Shown here: one piece after another, positions 9,728 through 38,500 of the stretch | Layout: every line of letters starts with the position of its first letter | Position numbering within the stretch: the stretch's first letter is position 1 | Origin: Pseudomonadota bacterium | GTDB lineage: Archaea > Thermoplasmatota > SW-10-69-26 > JACQPN01 > JAJPHT01 | Length of the DNA stretch: 64,000 bases | Assembly (NCBI GenBank): GCA_021325135.1 | Contig: JAJPHT010000020.1 | Location: 32,001 to 96,000, forward strand | Reading direction: 5' to 3' | Translations under genes and position numbers: made by a program | The notes under the pieces: generated by a model | Databases searched by the model: none | The model's input: the letters and a program-made list of their open reading frames with translations, nothing else | Told to the model about the DNA's origin: nothing

Positions 9728-10621
9728 GTGGAGCGCCCCTCCCGCGCGCGGACGATCCTCGAGTTCGTGAAGATCGAGCACGCCCTCTTCGCGCTCCCCT
9801 TCGTGCTCGCGGGCATGATCGAGGGGTTCCGCGAGCGCGGCGTCCCGCTGCGCCCCACCGCGGAGGGCGCGCGCCTCCTGCTCCTCGTCCTCGTGGCGGC
9901 CGTCTCCGCGCGGACGCTGGCCATGACGCTCAACCGCATCGTGGACCGCGGCCTCGACGCGCGCAACCCGCGCACCGCAGGCCGCGCCATCCCCGCGGGC
10001 CTCCTCTCCACGCGCGCCGCGTGGGCGCTGGCCGCGGTCTCGCTCGTCCTCCTCGTCGCGGCCTCGGCGCTCCTCAACCCCCTGGTGCTGGCGCTGACGC
10101 CCGTCCTCGCGCTCCTCTTCTTCGCCTACCCCTACGCGAAGCGCGTCACCTGGGCGTGCCACTTCGTGCTGGGCCTCGCCTTCCTCTGCGCGCCCGCGGG
10201 CGGCTTCCTGGCGGTGACGGGCTCCTTCGCGGGCTGGACGCGCGTGCTGCCCCTGTCGCTGGCGGCCATGGCGTGGGTGTCCGGCTTTGATATCATCTAC
10301 GCCCTGCTGGACCTCCCCTTCGACCGCGCGAACGAGGTCAGGAGCGTGCCCGCCGTCTTCGGCGAGGGCCCCGCGCGGCGCGTGGCGGTGGGGCTCCACG
10401 TGCTCACCGTGCTCCTCCTCGCCATCTACGCCCGCCTCGCGGGCTTGGGCTGGCCCATGTACCTCGCCGTCGTCGCCATCGCGGCGCTCCTCGCCTACGA
10501 GCACGCGACCGTCGACCCCAGCGACCCGGTGGCCATCAACAAGGCGTTCTTCCAGGTCAACGCCGTCGTGGGCTGGGTCGCGCTGGCGGGCGTCGCCGCC
10601 GCCCTCTGGCTCGCCGCGTGA
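9728..10621 (+). CDS. ubiA: UbiA-family prenyltransferase (MqnP-like)
   Basis: VKIEHALFALPF, NRIVDRGLDARNPRTAGRAIP, YPYAKR, GFDIIYALLD, INKAFFQVN. Confidence 0.9.
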   Translation: MERPSRARTILEFVKIEHALFALPFVLAGMIEGFRERGVPLRPTAEGARLLLLVLVAAVSARTLAMTLNRIVDRGLDARNPRTAGRAIPAGLLSTRAAWALAAVSLVLLVAASALLNPLVLALTPVLALLFFAYPYAKRVTWACHFVLGLAFLCAPAGGFLAVTGSFAGWTRVLPLSLAAMAWVSGFDIIYALLDLPFDRANEVRSVPAVFGEGPARRVAVGLHVLTVLLLAIYARLAGLGWPMYLAVVAIAALLAYEHATVDPSDPVAINKAFFQVNAVVGWVALAGVAAALWLAA

Positions 10622-10683: not shown

Positions 10684-11205
10684 ATGCGCACGCCTTGGCT
10701 TCTCCTTGCGCTCCTCGCCTTCGCCGGCGCGGCGCAGGGATCGGACGCGATCGGCTACCAGAGCGGGACCAACCAGTGCGCGATCCTCGCCTACGAGGCC
10801 ATAACACCACCGTCCCTTTGCCCCCACGTCGACCAGTCGGGCACGGCCACGCTGCTGGGCTGCGCGGGCGACCGCTGCACGGTGCGCGTCGACGCCAGCG
10901 CCCTCGCCCTGGGCGTCCTCCCCGCGGCGCAACGCGCGCTGGCGGTGGAGGCGCAGATCGCGGACGCCTCGGAGCCCGCGGCCCCTGCGTGCAGCGTGCT
11001 CAGCGAGGGCCCCAACGTCGCGTGCGACGGCGCGGCGGACCTCGACCTCCCGGTGGCGGCCGGCGCGTGCACCCTCTTCCGCGTGCGCGCCGCCCTCTCG
11101 GACCTGGGCGCTGACGGCGTGACCTTCGTCTACCGCCTCGCCACCGAGCGCGAACTTCAGGTGTGCCGCGACCTCGGCGGCTCCGCGACGATCTCCCTGG
11201 GCTGA
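10684..11205 (+). CDS. Secreted Cys-rich hypothetical protein
   Basis: Signal peptide MRTPWLLLALLAFAGAAQG; 8 Cys. Confidence 0.65.
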   Translation: MRTPWLLLALLAFAGAAQGSDAIGYQSGTNQCAILAYEAITPPSLCPHVDQSGTATLLGCAGDRCTVRVDASALALGVLPAAQRALAVEAQIADASEPAAPACSVLSEGPNVACDGAADLDLPVAAGACTLFRVRAALSDLGADGVTFVYRLATERELQVCRDLGGSATISLG

Positions 11206-11208
11206 GCC

Positions 11209-12600
11209 CTACGAGAGGCGCGGCGCCGCGGCCATGAGCCCCACGCCCTGCTTGAGCACGGCCACGTTGGTCTCGCTGTTGCGCGTCGCCGGGTCGGTCG
11301 CGCACTTGTGGTTGCAGCCGTCGGTGTACGCGACGTACACTCGCCCCTGGCCGTCGCGCTGCATGTCGAAGAAGTCCAGCAGGTTGCGGTCGGGCGTGCC
11401 GTCGTCGCCGCCGTTGTGGACGCGCCCGATGGAGACGGGGTTGTCGTCGGGCGTCAGCTGCTGCGTGACCATCGTCGCGTTCGCGCCGGAGAGGAGGCCG
11501 GTGGTCCACGTGACGTAGAGGTGCCAGCGCGCGTCCTTCGCGGCGTCGTCGGAGTTGGGCGACTTCCACGAGGAGGTGTCCGCCGTGGTTCCATAGTAGC
11601 CGAACATGACGCGGCCCGGGTCGCCCGCGATGGAGACGGCCATCATGCTGGACTTGACCTCGGGGGGAGAGACCTTGATGGCGGGGCCCCACGTCTTGCC
11701 CTTGTCCGTGGAGACGCTGGCGTACATGTGCGCGTCCTTGCCGGGCCAGACGAGGTACGCGTTGCCTGCGGTGTCGATGGCGATGCTGGGATCGTCGCCG
11801 GGCGTGGAGCGGCCCACGCCTCCGGTCTCGATGACGTGCTGCTCCCACGTCATGCCCGAGTCGCGGGAGACGGCCACGACGGGCTGGTCGCAGCCGGCCG
11901 CGGGCAGGTAGAGGATGCCGTCCTTGTCGGACTTGAGGTGGCCGTTGAGGCCGCCGCAGTGCGCCTGGTCGATGGCGATGACGCCGCCCGCGAAGGTGAG
12001 GCCGCCGTCCAGCGAGCGCGCGATGCCGCTGAACGCCGCGCCGTTCCAGCCGTAGTAGACCACGTCGGGGTAGCCCACGGTCACCGTCGTCGCGCCCTGG
12101 GGCTTGCCGGTGCCCACGGTCTGGTGGTCGTCCGCGGGGATGCCGCACGCGGCGGGGTTGTAGAGCCACGTCGCGCCCTCGTCGTCGCTGAACGCCAGGT
12201 AGCTGCACGCGACGTAGAGGTGGTCGAGGAAGACGCGCCCCGTGTCCTGGTCGACCCACAGCATGGGGTCCAGCGTGCGCGGGAAGTTCGCGGGGGGCGA
12301 CGCCAGCGTCCACGAGCTGCCGTTGTCGGTGGAGCGGAACACGTCGTTGGACGACACGACGAAGATCGTCCCCTTGCCCGTGACGCCCAGCGTGGGCTCG
12401 GCGCCCGAGTGCTTCACGTCGCTGAGGAGCCACGTCGCGTTGGCGCCCTCCGGGAGGGGCACCGCCTTGCCGGTCCCGTCGTAGGCGTAGAGCCCGTGCG
12501 TGGCGGGGGGCTGCACGACGGCGCCCGGCACCGAAGGGGGCACGGACTGGAAGCAGCCCGCCAGGAGGAGGGCGACGAGGAGGAGCAGCGAGGCGCGCAC
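11209..12600 (-). CDS. Lipoprotein with BNR/Asp-box beta-propeller (sialidase-like fold)
   Basis: Lipobox LLAGC; Asp-boxes STDNGSSW, SDDEGATW, SLDGGLTF, SRDSGMTW, STDKGKTW. Confidence 0.85.
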   Translation of the reverse strand: MRASLLLLVALLLAGCFQSVPPSVPGAVVQPPATHGLYAYDGTGKAVPLPEGANATWLLSDVKHSGAEPTLGVTGKGTIFVVSSNDVFRSTDNGSSWTLASPPANFPRTLDPMLWVDQDTGRVFLDHLYVACSYLAFSDDEGATWLYNPAACGIPADDHQTVGTGKPQGATTVTVGYPDVVYYGWNGAAFSGIARSLDGGLTFAGGVIAIDQAHCGGLNGHLKSDKDGILYLPAAGCDQPVVAVSRDSGMTWEQHVIETGGVGRSTPGDDPSIAIDTAGNAYLVWPGKDAHMYASVSTDKGKTWGPAIKVSPPEVKSSMMAVSIAGDPGRVMFGYYGTTADTSSWKSPNSDDAAKDARWHLYVTWTTGLLSGANATMVTQQLTPDDNPVSIGRVHNGGDDGTPDRNLLDFFDMQRDGQGRVYVAYTDGCNHKCATDPATRNSETNVAVLKQGVGLMAAAPRLS

Positions 12601-12714
12601 GCACGGTCACGGCCAGCGGGGGCATTTCACGTTTGCGGAGGCAACGCTGCGCTTGCCTGCGTCAAGACGCCTCTGACTCGGCTTGAGCACCCCCCTTGGC
12701 CTTCTCCTGGCCGC

Positions 12715-14454
12715 ATGACGCGCACCATCCTCGCGCTCCTGACCACCTCGATCCTGCTCGCGGCCCTGGCGCCCTTGTCCCAGTCGGCCGCGCTCCCAGC
12801 CCTCGACGACGCCGGAAGGTTCGTGCTCCCCGAGGGGGCCACGCTGCGCCTCCACGCGGACACGAAGATCGTCGCCCCCCAGGGGATCCGCATCGACGGC
12901 ACGATCCTGGGCGAGCGCACGCTGGACGGGCGCGGCGCGAGCCTCGTGCTGGAGACGCCCGGCGACGTCACCCTGCGCGGCAGCATCGTGCTGGCCGACG
13001 GGGCGGACGGCGTGGCCGGCCAGCGCGGCGGCGACGGGGGCGGCCTGGTGGTCGTCTCCCGCAGCGTCCGCCTTGAGCCTGGCTCCCTCGTCGCCCTGGG
13101 CGCGGGGGGGCACGGCGGCGACGTCCGGACCGAAGACCCCCTCTCCGTGGCGCGCGGCGGCGACGGCGGCCGCGGCGGCCCCCTCGTCCTGCAGGCGACC
13201 GAGGCCTTCCTGGATGGGATGGTCCTCCTGGGCAGGGGCGGCGACGGCGGCAGGGCGGACGCGGTCCTCGCGGCCGTGGGCGGCTCGGGCGGGCCCTCCT
13301 CGGTGCTGGTCGCGCCGCGCGGCCACACCGCGATCGCGGGGGGCGCCTGCGCCGACGAGACGTGCCTCGGCCTCTCCACGCTCCTGGCCTGCGGCGCCGA
13401 CGCGGATTGCGCAGGCCGCGAGGTCTGCCTCCCCTCCTGCGAAGGGCTCTCGATCCCGTGCCTCCAGGTCGCGTGCGCGGCGCCCCTGGACGCCCGGCCC
13501 TCCGTCCACGCGCCCCTGCCTGGCCAGCCCGCGAGCCCGGCCATCGTCGCGACGTGCGGCGGGAACGGCGCCGGGGCCACCACGTCCGCGGCCCCGAGCC
13601 CCAGCGGCCTCCCCGGCTCCAACGGCGCGGCTCCGGGCGACCCGGGGACCTCGGGCACCGGAGGCTTCCCGGGCATCAGCACCACGGCGACGGGAGGCGA
13701 CGGCGGGCCCGGCCTCCTCTGCGGCGGCACGGGCGGGAGCGCCACCGCCTTCGGAGGCACCGGAGGCAACGGCGGCAACGGAGGCAACGGCGGATCCGAC
13801 CCGTCCCTCCCTGGCGGCAAGGGCGGGGGCGGCGGCCCCGGAGGCGTGGGCGGCAACGGCGGCGCGACCGGGGGCGCCGGCGGAGCCGCGACGCTGGGCA
13901 CGGGCGGTGCGGGCGGCGACGCCTCGGGCATCGGAGGCAACGGCGGCTGCGGAGGGAACGGAGGCAACGGCGGCTCCGTGGGCGGCTCGGGCGGCGATGG
14001 AGGCCTCGGCGGCGCGGCCGGCGCTGGCGTCGCCACGGGAGGGGTCGGGGGCACCAGCGTGGTCGGCCTCGGAGGGAACGCGGGCAAGGCCAATGCCTTC
14101 GGCGGCTACGGAGGCTGCGGGGGGAGCGGCGGCAACGGCGACTTCTTCGGCGGCGCCGGCGGCAGCGGCGGCGACGGCGGCGTGGGGGGAGGAGCCGGGG
14201 CCTTCGGTTCCGCGGGCGGCAGCGCCCTGGTGGGCGTCAGCGGCAACGGCGGCGACGCCACGAACCAGCCCGGAGGCGGCGGCGACGGTGGCTACGGCGG
14301 CTATGGAAGCCCCGACGGCTGTGGCGGGTCCGGCGGCGCGGGCGGCGCCGGCAGCTCCACCCCGGGCCTGCCGGGCGGCACGCTGCCAGGGAGCGCCGGC
14401 AACAGCAATGGGCCCACCACGGGCCCCTCCGGCTACGGCCCGTCGTGCTCGTGA
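12715..14454 (+). CDS. Secreted glycine-rich (PE_PGRS-like GGxGGx) protein with Cys-rich linker
   Basis: Signal peptide; beta-strand/GGDGG repeats; 8-Cys segment; ~270-aa GGxGGx tail with interspersed Cys. Confidence 0.8.
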   Translation: MTRTILALLTTSILLAALAPLSQSAALPALDDAGRFVLPEGATLRLHADTKIVAPQGIRIDGTILGERTLDGRGASLVLETPGDVTLRGSIVLADGADGVAGQRGGDGGGLVVVSRSVRLEPGSLVALGAGGHGGDVRTEDPLSVARGGDGGRGGPLVLQATEAFLDGMVLLGRGGDGGRADAVLAAVGGSGGPSSVLVAPRGHTAIAGGACADETCLGLSTLLACGADADCAGREVCLPSCEGLSIPCLQVACAAPLDARPSVHAPLPGQPASPAIVATCGGNGAGATTSAAPSPSGLPGSNGAAPGDPGTSGTGGFPGISTTATGGDGGPGLLCGGTGGSATAFGGTGGNGGNGGNGGSDPSLPGGKGGGGGPGGVGGNGGATGGAGGAATLGTGGAGGDASGIGGNGGCGGNGGNGGSVGGSGGDGGLGGAAGAGVATGGVGGTSVVGLGGNAGKANAFGGYGGCGGSGGNGDFFGGAGGSGGDGGVGGGAGAFGSAGGSALVGVSGNGGDATNQPGGGGDGGYGGYGSPDGCGGSGGAGGAGSSTPGLPGGTLPGSAGNSNGPTTGPSGYGPSCS

Positions 14455-14509
14455 GGGCTCCTTGCCGCCGCCCCTCGCTGTTTTCGCACCCTTCGCCGTT
14501 GGGGAAGGC

Positions 14510-15193
14510 ATGGCCGAAGCGGCGTCGCGCGCCGGGGAGGAGCCTGACGACCTGACCCGCGCGCTGGTGGCGGTGGGGAACCGCACGAGGCTGCGCATCC
14601 TGCACCGGCTCGCGCAGCCGGCGTTCGTCCCCGACCTGGCGCGCGAGATGGGCCTCACGCGCCAGGCGGTGGCGCATCACCTGGAGGAATTGATGGCCGT
14701 GGGCCTCGTGGAGGCGGAGCGCGGCGCGCGCCGGGGCATCCTGCCCGCCACGCGTTACGTCGCCAGCGCGTGCGGCCTCTTCGCGTTCAAGGAGAGCGTG
14801 CTGGGCCTCGCCGTGATGCCCAGCGCGAGGGCGGAGCCGCCGCTGCCCACCCGCCCCCTGGGCCCGGGCCGGGTGGGGAGCGCGTCGCGGGGCGCGGGGC
14901 TCCTCCTCGCCCACGGCGACGCGCCGGGACGGTGGTTCGACCTGCGCGCGGGGACGAGCTGGATCCTGGGGCGCGACGCCAAGGCGGACGTGCGCCTCGC
15001 ATACGATCCCTTCGTGAGCACGCGCCACGCCCACCTGCGCCGCGAGGGGGCGCGCTGGAGCCTCACCGACCTGCACAGCACCAACGGCACGCTGGTGAAC
15101 TTCGAGCCCCTGGACGCGGGCGAGGAGCGCGAGGTCGAGCCGGGCGACCTGCTCACGGTGGGAAGGAGCCGGCTTCTCCTGCGGAGCCCGTGA
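14510..15193 (+). CDS. ArsR-like winged-HTH plus FHA domain regulator
   Basis: RLRILHRL..DLAREMGLTRQAVAHHLEELMAVGLV; FHA motifs LGR, VSTRHA, DLHSTNGTLVN, GDLLTVG. Confidence 0.9.
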   Translation: MAEAASRAGEEPDDLTRALVAVGNRTRLRILHRLAQPAFVPDLAREMGLTRQAVAHHLEELMAVGLVEAERGARRGILPATRYVASACGLFAFKESVLGLAVMPSARAEPPLPTRPLGPGRVGSASRGAGLLLAHGDAPGRWFDLRAGTSWILGRDAKADVRLAYDPFVSTRHAHLRREGARWSLTDLHSTNGTLVNFEPLDAGEEREVEPGDLLTVGRSRLLLRSP

Positions 15194-15197
15194 TAGC

Positions 15198-17150
15198 TTG
15201 GACGCCATCGCCCTGGCCTTCGCGGCGGACCTGGCCCTCGGGCTCTTTCTCCTGGCGCTGGCCGCCCTGGCGCCAAGGGCCGCGCGTCCCGGCCCCTCGC
15301 GCTGGCTCCTGGCGGCCTACCTTGCCCTCGTGGGGCTCGACTACGTCTCGGACGGCCTGGCGCGGCTGCTGGACGTGAAGACCCACACCCCGCTGCTCGA
15401 TTGGCTCTCCATCGGCACGCAGGCGCTCGACCCGCCCGTGCTCTTCCTCTTCGCCCTGGCCGTGACGGGCGCGCGGGTGCGGTGGTCCCGCGCGCTCCCC
15501 GCGTGCGCCGGGATCCTCCTCGTCACGTTCCGGCCGCAGCTTCTGGGCATCCCCGTGCAGGTCGGGCCCTTCGCCTACGCGGCCGTGGCGCTGGCGGCCT
15601 ACGTCGGGAGCTTCGCCCTCCTGGCGCGCAGCCACCTCGCGGCCGCCGATGGCGACGAGCGCGAGCCGCGCGGCGTGCTGGTCGTCGCCTTCGGCGTCGT
15701 GTGCCTCACGCGAGTTCCCCTGGCGCTCATCGACTTCCGCATCCTGCCCGTCGGGCCGCCCGGCCGGCAGGGAAGCGCCAGCTGGATGCTGGAGGCCCTT
15801 CTCTTCGGCGCGTTCGTCGCCTTCGCGCTGCTCTCGCGCGCCTTCGCCCGGCCCTCCGCGTGGCCCCACGCCCGCCGCGTCCTCATCGCCACCGGAGCGC
15901 TGCTCACGGTCCTGGATGGCGAGTGGCTGCTGCGGTTCGTCCCCTACCTCCAGGCGCCCTCCTACGCGCTGCTCTGGTCGGCGCGGTGGTTCCTCTTCCT
16001 TGCCGTCGTCATCGCGGGGCTGCGCCGCCACGACCTGCTCGGGCTCTCCGCCACCGTGGCGCCTTGGCTGCGCAGGACGTATGCGGCGCTCCTTGGCGTC
16101 GTGGCGGCCGTGCTCGCCGCCTCCTTCGCGCGGGCGCTCCCGGGCGTGTCGGACCTGGGCGCGGCCGCAGCCGGCGCCGCCGTGGTGGGCGCGGGGGTGG
16201 GCGCCGGCTTCGCCATCCGCGCGGCGGTGCCCAGGACGCCTTCGGAGGCCGAGTGGCGGCGCGCCGCCGTCTATCGCGCGCACCTGGCGCTGGGCTCGCC
16301 GCCTGCGGAGCTGGACGCCGCTCGCCGCGAGCTTGGCCTCTCGGAGCGGGAGGCGCGCGCCATCGCGAGCGCCTTCCGCGTGGAGCGGGAGGTCCCCGCC
16401 GACGCGCTGCCGGAGCGCGTGGAGCCCGGCCACGTCCTCCTGGGCCGCTATCGCGTGGAGCGGGTGCTGGGCGTGGGCGCCTTCGGCCGCGCCTACTCCG
16501 CCGTGGACCTTGCCGAGGAGCGTCGCGTCGTCCTGAAGGAGTTGCTCCCGTCGTGGCGCGGAGACGAGGAGGCCCTCGCCCGGTTCCTCCGCGAGGCGGA
16601 GGTCGCGCTGCGCGTCCGCCACCCCAACCTCGTGGGGCTGCGCGGCATCGAGCGGCTCGCCTCGGGGCACGTCCTGGTGCTGGACCACGTCGAGGGCGAG
16701 ACGCTCGCGGCGCGCCTGGCCCGCGGACCCCTGGAGGAGGCGGAGTCGCGCCGCCTCGCCCGGGACGTCCTGGAGGCGCTCGACGCCCTGCATCGGCGCG
16801 GCATCCTGCATCGCGACGTGAAGCCCGAGAACGTCATGCTGCGGCCCGACGGCTCCGCGGTGCTGCTGGACTTCGGCGCCGCCACGGCCCCCGGGACCGG
16901 CACGCGCCCCGCGCTGGGCCACCCCGGCACGCCGGGGTACGCGAGCCCCGAGCAGCGCCGCGGCGAGCCTTTGGCCCCCTCCAGCGACCTCTATGGCGTG
17001 GGCGCGCTCCTGTGGCGGGGCCTCACCGGCGAGCCGCACCCTCGGGGCCGGGCGCCTCCGTCCTGGGCCGCGCCCCTGGCGAAGGCCACCTCGCCGCGCC
17101 CGGAGGATCGATATCAGGACGCGGACGCGTTCCTCGCCGCCCTCTCGTGA
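15198..17150 (+). CDS. Multi-pass membrane Hanks-type Ser/Thr protein kinase
   Basis: ~8-9 hydrophobic segments, then GVGAFG, VVLKE, HPNLV, HRDVKPEN, DFG, GTPGYASPEQ, SDLYGVG. Confidence 0.92.
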   Translation: MDAIALAFAADLALGLFLLALAALAPRAARPGPSRWLLAAYLALVGLDYVSDGLARLLDVKTHTPLLDWLSIGTQALDPPVLFLFALAVTGARVRWSRALPACAGILLVTFRPQLLGIPVQVGPFAYAAVALAAYVGSFALLARSHLAAADGDEREPRGVLVVAFGVVCLTRVPLALIDFRILPVGPPGRQGSASWMLEALLFGAFVAFALLSRAFARPSAWPHARRVLIATGALLTVLDGEWLLRFVPYLQAPSYALLWSARWFLFLAVVIAGLRRHDLLGLSATVAPWLRRTYAALLGVVAAVLAASFARALPGVSDLGAAAAGAAVVGAGVGAGFAIRAAVPRTPSEAEWRRAAVYRAHLALGSPPAELDAARRELGLSEREARAIASAFRVEREVPADALPERVEPGHVLLGRYRVERVLGVGAFGRAYSAVDLAEERRVVLKELLPSWRGDEEALARFLREAEVALRVRHPNLVGLRGIERLASGHVLVLDHVEGETLAARLARGPLEEAESRRLARDVLEALDALHRRGILHRDVKPENVMLRPDGSAVLLDFGAATAPGTGTRPALGHPGTPGYASPEQRRGEPLAPSSDLYGVGALLWRGLTGEPHPRGRAPPSWAAPLAKATSPRPEDRYQDADAFLAALS

Positions 17151-17184
17151 TGGCGCCAGGGATCGTCGGGGCGGCGCCGTCGCC

Positions 17185-18384
17185 CTAGCGCGGCCCGCCG
17201 CCCAGCTTCACGGGCACGCCGCGGCCGCGGTTCCCGACCTTGCCCAGGTGCACGGAGAGCTGCCCCGTGTCGTGGGGCTTCTCGTCCTCGGTGGGGTCGT
17301 CGAAGCGCCGCAGGATCGCGTAGTACGTGTCGCGCTGCGCGGGGACGTAGCCCCCTTCGCGGAGGTAGCGCCGCGCCGCGGGCGGGTCCATGCCGAAGAG
17401 CGTGCCCGCCGCGCTGATGACGTTCTCCTCCATGAGCACGCCGCCCCAGTCGTTGGCGCCCATCTGGAGCGCCACCTGCGCGACCTTCGGGCCCTCGGTG
17501 ACCCAGCCGGCCTGCACGTTGGCGAAGTTGTCCAGGTAGAGCCGCGAGAGCGCGATGGTCCTCAGGTAGTCCTCGGTGGTGGCGTGGCTCTTCTTGAGGC
17601 GCGTGCTGCCGTCGGTCTGGAAGCTCCACGGGATGAAGGCGGTGAAGCCGCGCGCTCCGCGGGCGACGGCGCGGTCCTGCACCTCGCGCACGCGGTCCAG
17701 GTGCTCCACGCGGTGGCGCCACTCCTCGCCCATGCCGAACATCATGGTGGCGGTGGAGGTCATGCCCAGCTTGTGGCACTCCTCGTGGATCTCCATGTAG
17801 ACCGAGGCCTTGGTCTTCAGCGGCGAGACGCGGTCGCGGATCTCGTCCGAGAGGATCTCCATGCCGCCGCCGGGCAGCGACTTCAAGCCCGCGGCGCGGA
17901 AGCGCTCCAGCACCTCGCGGTAGGAGAGCTTCTCCTGCTGGGCGTAGAACTCGATCTCCGTCGCTGTAAGTGAGTGGATGTCCACCTGAGGGAAGCGCTC
18001 GCGCACCGCGCGGAAGAGCTGCTCAAGGTAGCTCATGGGCAGGTCGGGGTTGAGGCCGCCCTGGAGGAGCACCTGCGTGCCGCCCCACGCGACCAGGGGC
18101 TCGATCTTGGCGAGCACCTGCTCGATGGAGAGCGAGTAGGCGTCCTTCTCCTTCGCGGTGCGGTAGAAGCCGCAGAAGTCGCAGAGCGCGACGCACACGT
18201 TGGTGTAGTTGATGTTGCGGTCCACGACGTAGGTGACCACCTTGGGGTCGGTCACGGCGTTGCGGCGCGCGTTGGCCGCCGCCGCGAGGTCGAGGAAGGG
18301 CGCCTGCGCGACGAGGACGCCCTCCTCCGGGGTCAGGCGGCCGCCCTGCGCGGCCTTGTCGAGAAGCTGCTGGACGCGGGTCAT
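17185..18384 (-). CDS. mqnC: Cyclic dehypoxanthine futalosine synthase (radical SAM)
   Basis: VTYVVDRNINYTNVCVALCDFCGFYR, LLQGGLNP, TATMMFG, AFIPW, EENV, QRDTYY. Confidence 0.9.
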   Translation of the reverse strand: MTRVQQLLDKAAQGGRLTPEEGVLVAQAPFLDLAAAANARRNAVTDPKVVTYVVDRNINYTNVCVALCDFCGFYRTAKEKDAYSLSIEQVLAKIEPLVAWGGTQVLLQGGLNPDLPMSYLEQLFRAVRERFPQVDIHSLTATEIEFYAQQEKLSYREVLERFRAAGLKSLPGGGMEILSDEIRDRVSPLKTKASVYMEIHEECHKLGMTSTATMMFGMGEEWRHRVEHLDRVREVQDRAVARGARGFTAFIPWSFQTDGSTRLKKSHATTEDYLRTIALSRLYLDNFANVQAGWVTEGPKVAQVALQMGANDWGGVLMEENVISAAGTLFGMDPPAARRYLREGGYVPAQRDTYYAILRRFDDPTEDEKPHDTGQLSVHLGKVGNRGRGVPVKLGGGPR

Positions 18385-19295
18385 GGCGCGACCTCCAGGG
18401 GCGTCAGCGGCGGGACTTTGGGCATCTCCCCCACCTTGCGCGCCAGGTCGAAGTAGCGCGCGAGGCCCGCGAGCTTGGGCGCGTCGAGGTCGTAGTTGAG
18501 GTCGCGGAAGTAGCGCTCCATGAACGCCCGCGAGAGGAAGAGCTTGCGGCGCGCGTGCTCCACGATGGGCGCGCGGTTGGCGCGCCCCCACGCCTTGCTG
18601 GCCAGGAGCGCGTGGTGCACGGCGCGCAACGCCTCGGGGTCGCGCTGGGCGAAGTCGCGGCGGGCGGCCCACACGGCGAACACCATGGGCGTGCCGGTCC
18701 AGCGCGTCCACTCGTCGGCGAGGTCGAGGCGCCCCAGGTTGGGGTACGCCAGCGAGGCGCGCAGCGCGGCGTCGCCGATGAGGAGCACGCCGTCGTAGGC
18801 GTGGCCGATCTCCTCCAGGTCCGCGTCGCCCTGCACGATCGCGGCGTCGAGGCCGAGGCGCTCGCGCATGAGGATCTTCAGCAGCACGACGCTGGTGGCG
18901 CTCTCTCCGGTCACGCACACCTTCCCGCCGCGCAGCGATTCGACGCCGTTGCGGAAGAAGAGGGACACGCTGTGGACGAACCCCGTGCTGTTGATGGAGA
19001 GGCCCGGCAGAAGCTCCAGCGAGTCCGCATGCTGCGCGTAGGCGAAGCTGGACACGGGGCTCACCTGGAGGGCACCCGAGGCCAGCTGCGCGTTGAGCGT
19101 CGTGGGCGGCGCCTTCACGAGCTCCGCGCCCGGGGGCAGCGGCACCGCGCCCGTCTCCAGGCCGTAGTAGACGGGGAGCGAGTTGAGGTAGTCGATATAC
19201 CCGAGTCTTACGGGGGCGGCTCGCGAGCCGCCCCCGTAAGACTCGGGTGCGCGACGAACGCTGCGTTCGTCGCTGTAGCCCACGCGGACCTTCAT
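18381..19295 (-). CDS. mqnA: Chorismate dehydratase MqnA, with 26-aa palindrome-derived N-terminal insert
   Basis: IDYLNSLP, PTTLN, VHSVSL, SATSVVL, LLIGDAAL, DLADEW-WTG-PMVFAVW; located between mqnE and mqnC. Confidence 0.9.
   Translation of the reverse strand: MKVRVGYSDERSVRRAPESYGGGSRAAPVRLGYIDYLNSLPVYYGLETGAVPLPPGAELVKAPPTTLNAQLASGALQVSPVSSFAYAQHADSLELLPGLSINSTGFVHSVSLFFRNGVESLRGGKVCVTGESATSVVLLKILMRERLGLDAAIVQGDADLEEIGHAYDGVLLIGDAALRASLAYPNLGRLDLADEWTRWTGTPMVFAVWAARRDFAQRDPEALRAVHHALLASKAWGRANRAPIVEHARRKLFLSRAFMERYFRDLNYDLDAPKLAGLARYFDLARKVGEMPKVPPLTPLEVAP
19199..19273. repeat. 50-bp perfect palindrome plus adjacent 23-bp hairpin inside mqnA
   Basis: ACCCGAGTCTTACGGGGGCGGCTCG|CGAGCCGCCCCCGTAAGACTCGGGT (19199-19248); GCGACGAACGC-T-GCGTTCGTCGC (19251-19273). 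Confidence 0.95.
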
Positions 19296-20408
19296 TCAGG
19301 CCACCGCCAGGGGCGTCAGCTCGCGGGGGATGGGGTGATAGCTTCCGAAGGCGTACTCGGGGACGAAGCCCGCGCTGGTGATGAGGGGCGTGAGGTCCTC
19401 CTTCTTGACGAAGGCCCACGTCTTGCCTCCGGCCGCCTGGAGGATGCGCTCCTCGAAGGCCGCGCCGCCGATGTCGTCGACGCCGAAGTGCAGCGCGACC
19501 TGCGCCATGGGCTTGCCCACGGTGACCCACGGGAGCTTGATGTGGGAGACGTTGTCCAGGTAGAGCCGCGCGATGCTCACCATGCGCAGCGTGTCGAACG
19601 CGCTGGGGCCCATGGCGCCGGTCTTGGCGTGGAGCTCCGTGTTCTCGGGGTTCCACGCGAGGCCCAGGAAGGCGTTGAAGCCGCGGGTGCGGTCCTGCAT
19701 CTCGCGGACGCGGCGCAGGTGGTCGACGCGCTCCTCCGCCGTCTCCACGTGGCCGTAGAGGATGCTCACGTTGGTGGGGATGCCCAGCGCGTGCGCCTCC
19801 TCGTGGACCTGGAGGAAGCGGTCGCCCGCGATCTTGGTGGCCATCATGCGCTTGCGCGCCTCGGGATGGAACACCTCCGCGCCGCCCCCGGGAATGCTAT
19901 CAAGGCCAGCGGCACGGAGACGCCGCAGCGTCTCCGTGATCGACAGCTTCTCGCGCTTGGCGAGGAAGTCGACCTCGACGCCGGTCATGCCCTGGATGTG
20001 GGCCTGGGGGCTGACCTTCTTGAGGCGCCGGAACATCTCCTCGAAGTAGGCGAGGTCGCACTCAGGGGTGAGGCCGCCCACGACGTGCCACTCGTTGACG
20101 CCCACCTTGGCGGCGGCCTTGGCTTTCTCCTCGATCTCGTCCAGGGTCATGAGGTAGGCCTTCTCGCTGCCGCTCTTGGCGAAGAAGGCGCAGAACCCGC
20201 AGTCCGCGGCGCAGATGTTGGTGTGGTTGACGTTGAGGTCCGTGCGGGTGTAGACCTTGTTGCCGTGGCGCTTCGCGCGCTCGCGGTGCGCCAGCCTGCC
20301 CAGGGCGACGACGTCCTGCACGGCGAAGAGGGCCAGGGCGTCCTCGTCGGTGATCCGCTCGCTCCTGGCGAGCTTGCGCTCGACCTCGTCCAGGATGGGC
20401 ATTCTCAT
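19296..20408 (-). CDS. mqnE: Aminodeoxyfutalosine synthase (radical SAM)
   Basis: NVNHTNICAADCGFCAF, HVVGG, SIPGGGAEVF, LYGHVET, HIKLPWV, LHFGVDD. Confidence 0.88.
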   Translation of the reverse strand: MRMPILDEVERKLARSERITDEDALALFAVQDVVALGRLAHRERAKRHGNKVYTRTDLNVNHTNICAADCGFCAFFAKSGSEKAYLMTLDEIEEKAKAAAKVGVNEWHVVGGLTPECDLAYFEEMFRRLKKVSPQAHIQGMTGVEVDFLAKREKLSITETLRRLRAAGLDSIPGGGAEVFHPEARKRMMATKIAGDRFLQVHEEAHALGIPTNVSILYGHVETAEERVDHLRRVREMQDRTRGFNAFLGLAWNPENTELHAKTGAMGPSAFDTLRMVSIARLYLDNVSHIKLPWVTVGKPMAQVALHFGVDDIGGAAFEERILQAAGGKTWAFVKKEDLTPLITSAGFVPEYAFGSYHPIPRELTPLAVA

Positions 20409-24109: not shown

Positions 24110-26221
24110 TCATAGGCTGCGGCTCGTCCGCTCGCCCGGAGGCCCCCCGGGGACCTGGGAACCCGCGGGGAGCGTGAACCGGAACGTGGACCCGCGCCCG
24201 GTCCCCTGGCTCTCGCAGCCGATCTGCCCGCCGTGGGACTCCACGATCCCCTTGGCGACGTAGAGGCCCAGCCCCGCGCCGGAGCGCGTCTTGTCCATGT
24301 GGTCGTGGAGCTGGCTGAAGGGCTTGAAGAGGCGCCCGATGTCGTCGGCCGCGATGCCGGCGCCCGTGTCGGCCACCTCCACGCACGCGCTCCCGTCGCG
24401 CATCCTCACGGAGACGAGGACGCGCCCCCCGGCGGGCGTGAACTTCAGGGCGTTGCGGATGAGGTTGAACAGCACCTGCGTGATGCGGGGCGCGTCGGCG
24501 GGCACGACCGCGGCCTCTCCTTCCAGGTCGAGGGAGATGCCCTCCTGGAGCGCGGCCTCGTGGAACGACTCCACGGCCTCCTCCGCGAGGCGGCGCACGT
24601 CGGTGGGCGCGGGGCGCACGTCGAGGCGCCCCGACTGCACGCGCGCCGAGTCGATGACGTCGCGCAGCAGAAGGCCAAGCTGGTCCACGTTGCGCGAGAG
24701 CACCGAGACGCTGGTGCGCTGGCGGTCGGAGAGGGGCCCCAGCTTCTCGGAGCGGAGCATGTGCGCCTGGAGCTTGATGGGCGTGAGCGGCGTGCCGAGC
24801 TCGTGGGCGGCGTTGTTGATGAACTGCGTCTTGATGCGGTCGATCTCGCGGAGGCGCTCGTTCATGGACTGCAGCTCGCGCTGCTCGGCCAGGGCGCGCT
24901 CGGTGCGGCGCCGCTCGGTCACGTCGCGGAAGCTCCACACGCGGCCGATGACGTCGTCGCCCACGCGCTGGGGCTGCGAGTAGCGCTCGAAGGTGCGCCC
25001 GTCGCGGAACTCCAGCACGTCGAAGCTCGCCGTCTCGCGGTCCTGGTAGAGGTCGTCCACCTTGGCGCGGAAGCCGGAGGGGTCGAGGAGCTGGTCCTGC
25101 ACGTAGGAGAGGGCGCGCGCGTCCTCGCCCGCCTCCAGGATGGACATGGGGATGCCCCACATCTCGACGAACTTCTTGTTGAAGCCCGCGATCTTGCCCC
25201 CCTGGTCGACGACGAGGATGCCGTCGGTGGTGGACTCCAGCGTCGCGGTGAGGGTGGAGACGGCGCGGCGCAGCGCCTCCTCGGCGCGCTTGCGCTCGGT
25301 GACGTCGCGCAGCGTGATGACGGTCCCGATGATGGCGTCGTTGTTGCGGATGGGCGTGCGCTCGATCTCCACGGGGACCTGGGCGCCGTCCTTGCGGCGC
25401 ACGTGCACGGGCGCGTCGCTCACCAGGTGGGGCCCGCGGGGCAGCCAGGCAAGCTCCAGGGGCGCCGCGCCGTCGCTGGTCTGGATGAGCGCGTCGATGC
25501 TCTTGCCCTGGAGGTCGCCCACGGCGTGCTGCGTCATGGCGGCCGCGGCGGGGTTGGCGAACGTCACGAGGCCGTCGAGGTCCAGGCCGATGATGCCCTC
25601 GCCCGCGGAGTCCAGCACGAGCGCCGTGCGGCGGCGCGCCGTCTCCGCGACCTTCCACCCCATGAGGAGCGCGACGCTCTCGCCCAACACGAGGGAGGCG
25701 TGGATGAGCGCCCACTTCCAGGGGTGCGCGTAGGCGTCTCCGTGGTTGTAGACGAGGGTGGGGAAGAGCGTCCCGATGATGCCGTGGTCCAGCGCGACGT
25801 AGGCGATGGCCAGGAGGAAGGGGATCCAGTCCTGGTAGAGCGCGATCACGGCCAGCACGACGAAGAAGTGGAAGTGCGCCTCGATGTAGCCCCCGGAGAA
25901 CTGGACGATCATCGCCGAGGAGGTCACGAGGGCGAGGGCCGCGACCGCGCCCCGGAAGCGGCGCCGGGCGCCCGGCCACGACGCGACGAGGCCGATGGCG
26001 CCCACCAGCGCGCCCTCCGCCAGCGCGAGCGCGGGGAGGACGCCCATGTAGAGGCCGAAGGCGGCGACGCCCGCGGCGTGGCCGTAGATCACGAAGAGGA
26101 TCGCGCGGTGCCTCGCCCTCCACTCGTCCTCGGGCAGCTCGCGCCCTTCGGGCAGCGCGCGGCGCAGGGCGTCCGAGAGGCGGGCGGCGAAGGGGCTGCC
26201 GGCGGGGAGGGCGCTGGACAC
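24110..26221 (-). CDS. Membrane-bound PAS-PAS sensor histidine kinase
   Basis: TM domain with EAHFHFF; two PAS/PAC domains; H-box AAHELGTPL, N-box NLIRNALKFT, DTGAGI, GAGLGL. Confidence 0.93.
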   Translation of the reverse strand: MSSALPAGSPFAARLSDALRRALPEGRELPEDEWRARHRAILFVIYGHAAGVAAFGLYMGVLPALALAEGALVGAIGLVASWPGARRRFRGAVAALALVTSSAMIVQFSGGYIEAHFHFFVVLAVIALYQDWIPFLLAIAYVALDHGIIGTLFPTLVYNHGDAYAHPWKWALIHASLVLGESVALLMGWKVAETARRRTALVLDSAGEGIIGLDLDGLVTFANPAAAAMTQHAVGDLQGKSIDALIQTSDGAAPLELAWLPRGPHLVSDAPVHVRRKDGAQVPVEIERTPIRNNDAIIGTVITLRDVTERKRAEEALRRAVSTLTATLESTTDGILVVDQGGKIAGFNKKFVEMWGIPMSILEAGEDARALSYVQDQLLDPSGFRAKVDDLYQDRETASFDVLEFRDGRTFERYSQPQRVGDDVIGRVWSFRDVTERRRTERALAEQRELQSMNERLREIDRIKTQFINNAAHELGTPLTPIKLQAHMLRSEKLGPLSDRQRTSVSVLSRNVDQLGLLLRDVIDSARVQSGRLDVRPAPTDVRRLAEEAVESFHEAALQEGISLDLEGEAAVVPADAPRITQVLFNLIRNALKFTPAGGRVLVSVRMRDGSACVEVADTGAGIAADDIGRLFKPFSQLHDHMDKTRSGAGLGLYVAKGIVESHGGQIGCESQGTGRGSTFRFTLPAGSQVPGGPPGERTSRSL

Positions 26222-35521: not shown

Positions 35522-38500
35522 TTGACCGCCGATCCCAACCGCCGCGCCCGGGCCGCCATCGCCGCCCTCCTCTTCCTCCTCCCCGCCGGGAGCGCCCTCC
35601 TCCACGTGGCCGACGCGGCCAGCGGGACCAACGTCGTCACCGACCCCGCGGGCGACAACACGGGCGGCGGCCCCCAGGCGGACGTGCTCCGCGTGGGCGC
35701 CAGCAACGACGCCTCCAAGCTCTACTTCTACGTCGAAGTGGGTAGCACGTCGCCCCCCGCGGCGGACGTCGAGTACCAGGTGGACTTCACCGCGCCCGGC
35801 CAGCCCCCCTCGGCCCGGCAGTACAGCATCGTTGCGACCTACAGCGCGTCGGGCTCCATGGGCCCCGCCACGCTGGACTTCCTCACCGACGTCACGGGCT
35901 CCAGCGCGCGCACCGAGCAGGCCTCCATCGTGGGCGACGAGATCGTCTTCGCCATGAGCCGCGCCGACGTGAGCAGCCCGCCCACGGGCGCGACGTTCAC
36001 CGCCATCGACGCGCTGACCTACCCGCCCGCCGACCCCACCACCACGTGGGACGACACCTCCAGCGGCTCCTACACCATGGCGGCGCCCACGCCGGCCACG
36101 CCCAGCGCGCCCTCCATCACCGGCGCCGCGGGCAGCCCCTCCAGCGTCGCGCTCTCGTGGAGCGCGCCCGCCAGCAGCGGCTCCTCCTCCGTGACCGGCT
36201 ACAAGGTGTACCGCGGCACGACCAGCGGCGGCGAGACCCTGCTCGCCACGCTGGGCAACGTGCTCAGCTACGCCGACTCCGCCGTCTCCGCGGGCCAGAC
36301 CTACTTCTACCAGGTCAGCGCGGTGAACTCCGCGGGCGAGGGCCCCCGCAGCGCCGAGGCCTCCGCCACCGTGGCCGCGCCCACGCTGCCCGGCGCGGTG
36401 CAGGGCCTCTCCGCCACCGCGGGCGATGGCAAGGCCACGCTCTCGTGGAGCGCGCCCGCCAGCGACGGCGGGAGCCCCATCACGGCCTACCAGGTCTTCC
36501 AGGGCAGCGCGCCGGGCGCCGAGGGCCCCACGGCCGTCGCCACCGTCGCCGGCGCCAGCGCCACCCTCACGGGCCTCGCCAACGGGCAGACCTACTACTT
36601 CCGCGTCCGCGCGCAGAACGCCGTCGGCCTCGGCCCCGAAGGGAGCGAGGTCACGGTGACGCCGTCGCTCGCCGACGCGCCCACCGCGTTCGAGGACTAC
36701 CACAACACGCTGGGCGACACCTCCAGCGCGGGCGAGCCCAGCCTCGGCGTCGACCAGGAGACCGGCGCGGTCCTCTACACCTCGGGCTTCAACACGTACA
36801 AGATCACCAACCTGCGCCCCAACGCCGACGCGCGGACGCCGGGCGCCGCGACGTGGGCCGACGTGAGCAACGTCAAGTTCGCGCCCACCGTGCTGGGCGA
36901 CCCCATCGGCTGGCTCGACCGCCACACCAACCGCTTCTTCCAGGCCGAGCTCCTCGTGCCGCCCGACTGCAGCCAGATGGGCTACACGGACGACGGCGGC
37001 GCCACCTGGAACGTGAGCGACGGCTCGTGCAACACGCCCAACGGCGAGGACCACGAGACCGTGGGCGGCGGCCCCTTCCACGGCGAGAAGGGCCCTCAGC
37101 TTGGCAGCGCGTACCCCGACTCGGTCTACTACTGCACGCAGGCCAACGCGCTGGCCACGTGCGCCGTCTCCGAGGACGGCGGCGTGACGTTCCAGCCCGC
37201 CCGCGTCATCTACCACACGATCCTCAACCAGAACACCATCGCCACGGCGGACGGCGCGGACCCCTCGGGCTTCTGCTTCAACCTGCATGGCCACGTGAAG
37301 GTCTCGCCCACCGGCATCGCCGCGGTGCCCAACAAGAACTGCTACACCACGGGCTCCCAGGAGACGAAGGGCGGCGTCACGACGTCGGACGACGGCAACA
37401 CGTGGCGCATCTTCTCCATCCCCAGCAGCACGCAGGACCCCAACGGCGGCGACGACGACCCCAGCCTCGACTGGAGCCAGTCCCGCGCGCCGGGCGCCAC
37501 GCACGACCGCCTCTGGTACGGCTACTACGACGGCGACCACCACATGAAGATCGCCCACAGCGACGACCTGGGCGCGACGTGGTCCCCGAGCTTCGACGTG
37601 GGCGCCAGCCTCGGCCTCGTGAACACCAAGTTCCCCGAGGTCGTCGCAGGCGACTGGGACCGCGCCGCCATCGCCTTCCTGGGCTCCGCCACCGCGGGCG
37701 ACAACCAGGCCTCCGGCTTCAACGGCGTCTGGCACCTCTACGTCGCGACCACCTACGACGGCGGCCAGACGTGGACCACCGTCAAGGCCAGCACGGACCC
37801 TGTGCAGAAGGGCTGCATCAGCATGGGCGGCACCACCAGCAGCACGTGCCGCAACCTGCTTGACTTCATGGACGCGCAGCTGGACGCCACCGGCCATGTC
37901 GCGGTCGCCTACCCCGACGGGTGCGAAGGCGCCTGCGCCGCGGACGAGAACCCGCACGCGTGGTCCTCCTCCTACAGCAACGACGCGGCGCCCGCCCTGG
38001 CCTACCAGAGCGGCGGCCGCGGCCTGCTCTCCGCCTTCGACACGTCGAAGACCGTCCCCGCGGCGCCCGTCATCATGGCCTCCGCGGGCAACGGCCTCGT
38101 GCGCCTCCAGTGGGCGCCGCCCAACGACGGCAACAGCCCCATCACGGGCTACCTCGTCGAGCGCGACGGCTCGCTCCTCGCCACGCTGGGCGCGGTCGCG
38201 AGCTTCGAGGACCGCAGCGTCGCCAACGGCGCGACCTACGGCTACCAGGTGGCCGCCATCAACTCCGTGGGCACCGGCGCCCTGAGCGCGCCCGTCTCCG
38301 CGACGCCCTTCTTCGACGACCAGGCGCCCACGCAGGTCACGGACCTCCAGGCCAGCGCGGCGGCGGACCACGCCATCTCGCTCCTTTGGGACGCCTCCAG
38401 CGACGACCACGGCGTCGACCACTATGATATCATCCGCGACGGCGCGGTGGTCGCCAGCGTCAGCAGCGCCACGACGGCGTTCGCGGACTCGGGCCTCCAG

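Follow-up and report, generated by a model that had tools for sequence, protein, structure and literature searches.

What kind of signalling unit is encoded by the three co-directional genes at positions 12715-17150 of the stretch analysed here (the window; 64,000 nucleotides of contig JAJPHT010000020.1), which specify a secreted glycine-rich protein (gene 1), a winged helix-turn-helix (wHTH) regulator fused to a forkhead-associated (FHA) domain (gene 2) and a polytopic membrane Ser/Thr kinase (gene 3)? An earlier examination of the letters alone, referred to below as the sequence-only reading, took all three for one compact receptor-kinase module. Upon following the locus through related genomes, we observe that the conserved unit is the wHTH-FHA/kinase pair and not the trio. 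Similarities in sequence and predicted structure suggest, with a probability that we place at about 0.7, that the functional unit is a two-gene phosphothreonine (pThr) signalling module, one of approximately eight paralogous modules in the genome. Membrane-to-transcription signalling in archaea is poorly understood, and this module, which every genome of one Thermoplasmatota class carries, provides a compact alternative that lends itself to testing.

The locus and its host

The window has a G+C content of 73%, owing to which long spurious open reading frames occur in every frame. Genes were hence called with a codon-usage log-odds caller, trained on the whole source genome (G000; 3.77 Mb in 51 contigs, 94% complete) and independent of the sequence-only reading. 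The caller places three plus-strand genes exactly at 12715-14454, 14510-15193 and 15198-17150, separated by gaps of 55 and 4 bp, and thus recovers the tight co-directional spacing that had been described earlier. The features of the locus are as follows.

12601-12714, no strand: divergent intergenic region between a BNR lipoprotein gene and the glycine-rich gene; holds a palindrome at 12639-12658, a weak operator candidate
12715-14454, plus strand: gene 1, secreted glycine-rich protein of 579 residues (gene caller; unmatched in Pfam and NCBIfam); outside the conserved module
14455-14509 (55 bp), plus strand: promoter-like gap element of the regulator-kinase operon (genome-wide upstream profile and position weight matrix)
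14510-15193, plus strand: gene 2, wHTH-FHA regulator of 227 residues (Pfam, alignment, conservation of Thr114)
15198-17150, plus strand: gene 3, polytopic membrane Ser/Thr kinase of 650 residues with a TTG start (Pfam, catalytic residues, AlphaFold2 model, match to PknB)

The host is an uncultured archaeon of the Thermoplasmatota, from soil. Its genome carries the archaeal markers Kae1-Bud32 fusion and archaellin, and the records of its relatives are labelled as Thermoplasmatota or Thermoplasmata metagenome-assembled genomes. Positions 11000-18000 of the window are matched without a difference by contigs from a second study, a mine metagenome of 2024, in addition to the soil metagenome from which the genome may derive. 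One of these identical contigs spans the junction of gene 1 and gene 2, and so their arrangement is not an assembly artefact. The mine-metagenome match is the same strain or species and hence does not represent evolutionary conservation.

The regulator-kinase pair as the conserved unit

Every FHA domain found in G000 resides in a wHTH-FHA protein of ~230 residues (eight by the family profile, seven by the Pfam FHA model), and the genome encodes 10 polytopic kinases of the gene 3 build. Seven of the eight wHTH-FHA genes abut a gene for a transmembrane kinase. Two of these pairs are co-directional with the FHA gene preceding the kinase gene (including the pair at 14510-17150), and the other five converge, with 3' ends that overlap in four cases. 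Among relatives, a kinase domain is present within 1.5 kb in 17 of the 19 best loci. Across the class, all 21 genomes encode full-length wHTH-FHA proteins (1-14 copies each) and all 21 encode the kinases. Upon crossing the coordinates of the regulator and kinase searches, a kinase match was found within 2.5 kb for 90 of the 134 wHTH-FHA copies, 69 of which have it at a distance of no more than 350 bp; these counts are lower bounds, many contigs being short, and the chance rate for such adjacency is ~2% by our own estimate. Outside the class, full-length wHTH-FHA proteins could be identified in only seven of 280 sampled genomes of the phylum. In public data, 454 clusters (at 50% identity) match at E <= 1e-30 out of a library of 1.84 billion representatives, and most of the best-scoring clusters are full-length (~230 residues). 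In the sources seen, none of the clusters has been given a name that denotes a function. With a single protein as query, a search for related loci in genome and metagenome contigs returned distant loci only and added no orthologous context.

The five closest orthologous loci (G002:C95, G002:C28, G006:C186, G008:C328 and G009:C12), whose regulators are 44-59% identical to gene 2, all keep the order of FHA gene then kinase gene, with a gap of 0-4 bp or a short overlap where both ends were called. Over 14 pairs, the matrix of identities among the regulators is correlated with that among the kinases (Mantel r 0.61, p 2e-4), and the pairs were therefore duplicated as units. The sequence-only reading had inferred that the membrane kinase is coupled to a pThr-reading transcription factor, and the pairing in its own genome, at the loci of relatives and over the class supports this inference.

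The one regulator of G000 that has no kinase beside it (G000:C33:225012-225863) and one of the three kinases that have no regulator beside them (G000:C17:32129-34501) each adjoin a gene whose TrmB-like N-terminal HTH (LREFGLSEYAARAY...) is very similar in the two cases. The arrangement may reflect an alternative partner, or be left over from a rearrangement.

The wHTH-FHA regulator

The regulator is encoded on the plus strand and has three parts.

14576-14734 (residues ~23-75), plus strand: ArsR/HTH_20-type winged helix
14849-14851 (codon of Thr114), plus strand: Pro/Ala-rich linker with the near-invariant Thr114
14912-15184 (residues ~135-225), plus strand: FHA domain

Gene 2 matches the Pfam families HTH_20 (PF12840; 42.4 bits, cut-off 27) and HTH_5/ArsR (PF01022; 28.8 bits, cut-off 22), and residues 151-218 match the FHA family (PF00498) with 60.3 bits against a cut-off of 20.7. 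In an alignment with 21 relatives, the pThr-binding residues G154-R155, S170 and N192-G193-T194 of the FHA domain are invariant; position 173 is His in gene 2, and His (58%) or Asn (41%) in the corresponding column of the family. The ArsR-like HTH fused to an FHA domain with intact G-R, S-x-x-H and N-G residues, as proposed from the letters alone, is thus supported by both the Pfam scores and the residues in place.

The ArsR recognition-helix signature, (S/T)RQxxxxHLxxL, is conserved over 171 members of the family, with R51-Q52, H57, L58 and L61 near-invariant (R51-Q52, H57 and L61 in at least 86%), and the residues at positions 53-56 within it differ between paralogues. Conserved signature and variable positions together fit DNA binding with paralogue-specific operators. 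A profile search of the PDB also matched the wHTH half to solved ArsR-family repressors (PDB identifiers 2oqg, 2p4w and 6j0e). Gene 2 scores 45 bits against the model of the ArsR/SmtB metalloregulators (NF033788), below its cut-off of 55, it lacks the CxC motif, and its sole Cys, C88, is unconserved (the column is mostly Gln or Ala). By score and by metal-ligand motif, gene 2 appears to lie outside the ArsR/SmtB metalloregulator subfamily.

The linker between the two domains is otherwise unconserved but harbors one near-invariant residue. Thr114 is Thr in 99% of the 171 aligned members, while in the neighbouring linker columns the top residue does not exceed 28%. An alignment-free check agrees with this, a Thr being present 18-19 residues past the conserved Glu95 in 123 of 145 sequences as against ~5% per position elsewhere. 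When the PDB is searched by profile, the closest solved FHA domains are those of OdhI (E 9.6e-16) and GarA/Rv1827 (~1e-15, including the closed form with pThr22), and those of EmbR (PDB identifier 2fez; E 1e-8) and ArnA (PDB identifier 5a8i; E 2.5e-4) are more distant. The proximity of the FHA domain to GarA/OdhI, taken together with the invariant Thr114, suggests a pThr switch operating on the protein's own FHA domain. The two observations turn a vague idea of kinase-FHA signalling into a specific switch.

The membrane kinase

The kinase is likewise composed of three parts.

15198-16226 (residues 1-343), plus strand: ~11 transmembrane helices (AlphaFold2 model, topology)
16227-16412 (residues 344-405), plus strand: three-helix cytoplasmic linker, helices at 348-397 (AlphaFold2 model)
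16413-17147 (residues 406-650), plus strand: RD-type Hanks kinase domain (Pfam, alignment)

Gene 3 matches the Pfam protein kinase family (PF00069) with 126.4 bits against a cut-off of 31.7. Its catalytic set is complete, comprising the Gly loop, K447, E466, D540 of HRD, N545, D558 of DFG, the (A/S)PE motif and R638, and G425, G427, K447, E466, H538, D540, N545, D558, G560, P584, E585 and R638 are invariant across the kinase alignment. The nearest solved fold of the kinase domain is that of Mycobacterium tuberculosis PknB, with a Z-score of 29.8, a root-mean-square deviation of 1.5 Å and 34% identity. The AlphaFold2 model built with 17 homologues (mean predicted local distance difference test score, pLDDT, of 82.7) has ~11 membrane helices. 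The complete Hanks kinase at the end of the protein is therefore as the sequence-only reading had it, but the helix count rises from the ~8-9 suggested there. In this model the N-terminus lies outside and every outer loop is at most 11 residues long, as a consequence of which the kinase is predicted to have no ectodomain.

The activation segment of gene 3 contains Thr residues (DFGAATAPGTGTRPALGHPGTPGYASPE), and orthologues retain a T-(R/E/Q)-(P/A) motif. Several paralogous kinases have HGD in place of HRD and are thus non-RD, whereas gene 3 and its orthologues are of RD type; gene 3 and its orthologues also lack ~25 C-lobe residues that are present in other paralogues. Against the model of the PknB/Stk1 PASTA kinases (NF033483), gene 3 scores 156 bits with the kinase domain alone aligned (cut-off 450). 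That group has a single transmembrane helix and extracellular PASTA domains, and gene 3, with its 11 helices and no ectodomain, does not belong to it. The membrane domain of gene 3 does not match HisKA_7TM (PF16927) or 7TMR-DISM_7TM (PF07695), and among 17 kinase paralogues two match HisKA_7TM (best E 2.7e-4) and one matches 7TMR-DISM_7TM (3.4e-4). Kinase domains took up all the matches of the fold search with the whole of gene 3.

In several genomes (L036:5386-5940, L037:9221-9715 and G000:C17:28831-29565), genes for small proteins with the motif N-D-(A/G)-G-S-G-x-D-A-S lie directly upstream of paralogous transmembrane kinases, and as a recurrent accessory protein these are more promising than the product of the glycine-rich gene.

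A plausible mechanism and what weighs against it

Based on these similarities, we propose the following sequence of events for the two-gene module. The kinase, with its 11 membrane helices and no ectodomain, would sense a signal in or at the membrane, possibly via accessory proteins. Being of RD type with Thr in its activation segment, it would probably autophosphorylate there, as is familiar from its family. The cotranslated ArsR-type wHTH-FHA partner would dock on the phosphorylated kinase through its FHA domain, in the manner of GarA on PknB and EmbR on PknH, and may then be phosphorylated at the near-invariant linker Thr114, a step suggested by the conservation of this residue. pThr114 would in turn be captured by an FHA domain, either the protein's own (as in GarA/OdhI) or that of its dimer partner, and the capture would alter operator binding by the winged-helix dimer and hence transcription. 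The variable residues of the recognition helix would give each paralogous pair its own regulon.

Several observations weigh against this proposal. The operator search established no operator, and the orthologous upstream regions have no motif in common. The residues following Thr114 have no clear preference at the pT+3 position. No PP2C-type phosphatase (PF13672, or PF07228/SpoIIE) was found in the 94%-complete genome, PPP-type phosphatases not having been searched for. The correlation of the identity matrices follows from linked co-duplication; it records the history of linkage and is by itself no sign of interaction or contact. Pairing is also not obligatory, as about one-third of the wHTH-FHA genes of the class have no kinase match nearby; at G019:C52:3304-7757, for example, three wHTH-FHA genes lie within 4.5 kb and there is no kinase match on the contig. 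In the family designated f6, regulator-kinase pairing is much looser (for example, one of eight in G019).

A broader form of the proposal would hold that the Thermoplasmatota possess, lineage-wide, insulated one-kinase/one-regulator pThr "two-component" systems, in which an intramembrane sensor kinase phosphorylates a linker Thr, FHA capture flips an ArsR-type repressor, and the outputs are variable surface or secreted proteins (here, the PGRS-like protein). This generalization is tentative, and we consider it rather less probable than its opposite. If true, such an insulated pThr design would be a transcription-coupled signalling architecture that is undescribed in any domain of life.

The glycine-rich protein and alternative explanations

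Gene 1 encodes 579 residues with a signal-like N-terminal helix, 32% Gly and GGxGG repeats, consistent with the secreted GGxGGx protein of the sequence-only reading, and it has no match to any Pfam or NCBIfam family. It is composed of a β-rich N-terminal domain (~30-200) with GGDGG turns, a Cys-rich segment (~220-260) and a C-terminal half of PGRS-like GGxGGxGGNGG repeats. The single-sequence AlphaFold2 model has a pLDDT of 40 and is confident only at residues ~30-130, where it forms short β-strands with GGDGG turns; the glycine-rich half has a pLDDT of ~30. An ESM Atlas model of gene 1 superposes on models of a PE_PGRS cluster with TM-scores of 0.55-0.63, the structures being predicted on both sides. 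Searches with phmmer against all PDB chains found nothing at E <= 1, including the glycine-rich domain of ALK/LTK. The echo of the ALK/LTK ectodomain that had been noted earlier remains a resemblance in composition only.

The family defined by the N-terminal domain of gene 1 is small and patchy, with ~15 members in five of the 21 genomes of the class. Two of the paralogues from G002 match the G8 domain, albeit below threshold. On contig C106 of the same genome (L054:5008-10333), three glycine-rich genes stand in tandem (28-30% Gly, 549-591 residues) with no kinase or FHA gene nearby, and at least two of them belong to this family. None of the five orthologous loci has a glycine-rich gene upstream, and their neighbours are unrelated. 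Conservation of the trio as such was not found, an outcome that the sequence-only reading had itself listed as refuting. The co-occurrence that the sequence-only reading proposed as a check, of HTH-FHA and transmembrane kinase genes next to variable secreted genes, recurs in related genomes as far as the pair is concerned, but secreted-type neighbours are not enriched: they account for seven of the 22 immediate neighbours of the modules, as against a background of 22% signal-peptide-like proteins in the proteome (p = 0.19). A general rule of a variable secreted neighbour was accordingly rejected. We would describe gene 1 as a secreted, PGRS-like orphan from a family that is small and patchily distributed.

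The upstream regions also set gene 1 apart from the pair. The genome-wide upstream profile of G000 has AT-rich peaks at -35 to -33, -30 to -26 and -11/-10 from start codons, and the latter two point to mostly leaderless transcripts in this archaeon of 73% G+C. The 55-bp gap preceding gene 2 harbors TTTT at 14481-14484 (-29 to -26 from the ATG) and TT at 14499-14500 (-11/-10). By position weight matrix, this element ranks at the 87th percentile among promoter-bearing genes and, among in-operon starts, at the 99th. Gene 1 lacks such a leaderless-type signal (8th percentile), and a good one in 12601-12714 belongs to the divergent minus-strand gene. The regulator-kinase operon is hence predicted, from these scores, to have probably its own promoter.

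The alternative that survives best does not displace the two-gene module but adds to it, namely that the glycine-rich protein is a regulated output, with the wHTH-FHA protein binding 12601-12714 and switching a surface protein according to the state of the kinase. Transcription factors often control an adjacent gene, and the lack of the usual leaderless signal is as expected for an activator-dependent or leadered gene. The intergenic region also contains a genome-rare 20-bp palindrome, AGGCAA-N8-TTGCCT (12639-12658), of which there are only two perfect copies in 3.77 Mb as against ~0.05 expected by our base-composition estimate. However, its other perfect copy (G000:C23:89265) is found in the 280-bp spacer that precedes an unrelated xseA-like gene, and the orthologous upstream regions, as noted above, share no motif. 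A second argument is one of recurrence. On contig C25 of the sister genome G002, the gene of a homologue of the gene 1 N-terminal domain (654 residues, 25% Gly) precedes another wHTH-FHA paralogue by 26 bp on the same strand. That paralogue is the orthologue of the regulator in the G000 C15:238059 pair (69% identity for the regulator, 80% for the kinase) and converges on its kinase. Two of ~15 family members are thus so placed, as against an expectation that we estimate at ~0.003 per gene; but with the prompting case set aside this is one extra case (p ~0.02-0.09, our estimate), and the orthologues of gene 2 at the five other loci have unrelated neighbours. At the C15 paralogue locus of G000, tblastn found no glycine-rich remnant, and the spacer contains what by eye seems to be a tRNA-like stretch. 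We regard regulation of gene 1 by the pair as possible but rather improbable. Gene 1 is a lineage-specific and loosely attached neighbour, at most a regulated target of the gene 2/gene 3 pair, and for what link there is, an output is more likely than a co-receptor.

It is much less likely that the wHTH-FHA protein is a kinase-bound adaptor or inhibitor akin to the FhaA/FipA scaffolds, its winged helix serving protein contacts or dimerization only. FHA proteins beside bacterial kinases are often scaffolds, the best FHA match of gene 2 in NCBIfam is FhaB/FipA, albeit sub-threshold (54 bits against a cut-off of 125), and the failure of the operator search would be in keeping with such a role. Against this stand the near-invariance of R51-Q52, H57-L58 and L61 in the 171 members, a pattern expected of a DNA-reading helix, and the matches of the wHTH half to solved ArsR-family repressors. 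The least likely alternative, and one that we consider very improbable, is the three-gene module of the sequence-only reading, in which the glycine-rich ectoprotein is an extracellular co-receptor or ligand sensed by the kinase: the tight co-directional spacing, a kinase without an ectodomain of its own (which could conceivably rely on an accessory sensor), the small genes with signal peptides that immediately precede some paralogous kinases (for example C15_240789, L051_10464 and L036_5386) and the single recurrence at G002:C25 speak for it, but the trio was found at no orthologous locus, the glycine-rich family was not found in 16 of the 21 module-bearing genomes, the regulator gene has a promoter-like element to itself, no enrichment of secreted neighbours was seen, and the neighbour of the glycine-rich gene is in both cases the regulator gene rather than the kinase gene. 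The two-gene module thus remains the preferred reading, and the glycine-rich protein is not to be counted as a core part of it.

Comparison with known signalling systems

In its logic, the closest known system is PknH/EmbR of M. tuberculosis, in which it is through the FHA domain that the regulator docks on the kinase and is phosphorylated by it (PMC8636726, PMC9239209). There too, the gene of a membrane Hanks kinase lies beside that of a regulator with a C-terminal FHA domain, and the FHA domain of EmbR matches the wHTH-FHA family profile at E 1e-8. However, EmbR combines an OmpR/PhoB-type wHTH with a BTAD, whereas gene 2 has the ArsR/HTH_20 type and no Trans_reg_C or BTAD domain by Pfam. By domain content, gene 2 lies outside the EmbR family, and only its FHA part matches 2fez. 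PknH has one transmembrane helix and a folded ectodomain, unlike gene 3 with its ~11 helices and no ectodomain. The archaeal module differs further in being expanded to 1-14 copies per genome, and the wHTH-FHA family is characterized by its one invariant linker Thr.

GarA and OdhI of Actinobacteria provide the precedent for the linker Thr. In these proteins, a Thr that is N-terminal to the FHA domain is phosphorylated by PknB or PknG, upon which this segment folds back on the protein's own FHA domain; the PDB entry 2kfu is titled "Rv1827 pThr 22". Their FHA domains are the nearest solved ones by profile, and Thr114 likewise precedes the FHA domain by a few tens of residues. We infer, by analogy, that pThr114 may fold back onto the FHA domain in a GarA-like manner. 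GarA and OdhI have no DNA-binding domain and regulate metabolic enzymes, in contrast to gene 2. With a score of 40.1 bits against the cut-off of 200 for OdhI (NCBIfam NF041660), a wHTH, and a Thr context unlike the ETTS motif, gene 2 is outside the GarA/OdhI equivalog, and the resemblance is one of mechanism only.

FHA signalling in archaea has been studied almost only in Sulfolobales (PMC5007285). There, ArnA and ArnB, with the kinases ArnC and ArnD (ST0829/ST1565), are FHA-system proteins phosphorylated by Hanks-type kinases that affect the transcription of surface-structure genes (PMC5007285, PMC6509490). The likeness extends to archaeal FHA proteins being phosphorylated by Hanks-type kinases, but ArnA combines a zinc finger and an FHA domain and acts with a vWA partner, no polytopic membrane kinase is encoded alongside, and each genome has a single system. 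Gene 2 has no zinc finger by Pfam, matches 5a8i with an E-value of only 2.5e-4, and has no vWA protein among its called neighbours.

The arrangement also recalls two-component systems, in which the gene of a membrane sensor kinase lies beside that of its cognate DNA-binding partner in many paralogous, co-duplicated pairs, though here Ser/Thr phosphorylation would be read by an FHA domain in place of the His-Asp relay. To our knowledge, archaeal response regulators rarely carry DNA-binding outputs. As G000 also encodes ~36 receiver and ~27 HATPase_c domains, the wHTH-FHA/kinase module would add to two-component signalling rather than replace it.

For gene 1 alone, the likeness is to the mycobacterial PE_PGRS proteins, whose PGRS domains have been modelled as polyglycine-II sandwiches (PMC9436101), and it rests on the GGxGGxGGNGG-type repeats and the superposition of models described above. 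Gene 1 differs in having no PE domain or ESX context, and in having an archaeal Sec-type signal and a distinct β-rich N-terminal domain. The Pfam PGRS model (PF21526) has no match to gene 1 at E <= 0.1, which places it outside the PE_PGRS group.

In the library searched, we found no paper that combines Thermoplasmatota with FHA or uses terms of the HTH-FHA type, although this is no proof that none exists. The regulator-kinase pair looks like an undescribed pThr signalling route. New here are the invariant Thr114 with its link to GarA/OdhI, the class-wide count of adjacency, the gap promoter, the recurrence at G002:C25 and the negative result on the trio.

Neighbouring genes

The divergent gene at 11209-12600 (minus strand) encodes a BNR/Asp-box β-propeller lipoprotein (BNR_2 match with E 3.9e-10). 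Its family has ~53 clear paralogues in G000, mostly with lipobox-like N-termini, among 82 jackhmmer hits. Look-alikes occur near other kinase loci; the lipoprotein was rejected as a part of the module, as only four members of the family lie within 4 kb of a module gene. A secreted giant of 1947 residues, encoded at 35522-41365 (plus strand), also matches this family.

Rfam and tRNA scans of the window found nothing. An MqnP-like prenyltransferase gene of the futalosine pathway of menaquinone synthesis is located at 9728-10621 (plus strand), and MqnC, an unnamed gene of 304 residues and MqnE, of the same pathway, at 17185-20402 (minus strand). The signalling locus and two genes for secreted proteins sit between these two groups of menaquinone genes, and the orthologous pair of G002 has other neighbours. 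Further along the window, a PAS-type sensor histidine kinase is encoded at 24110-26221 (minus strand) and an SMC protein (TIGR02169, 925 bits) at 52980-56573 (minus strand).

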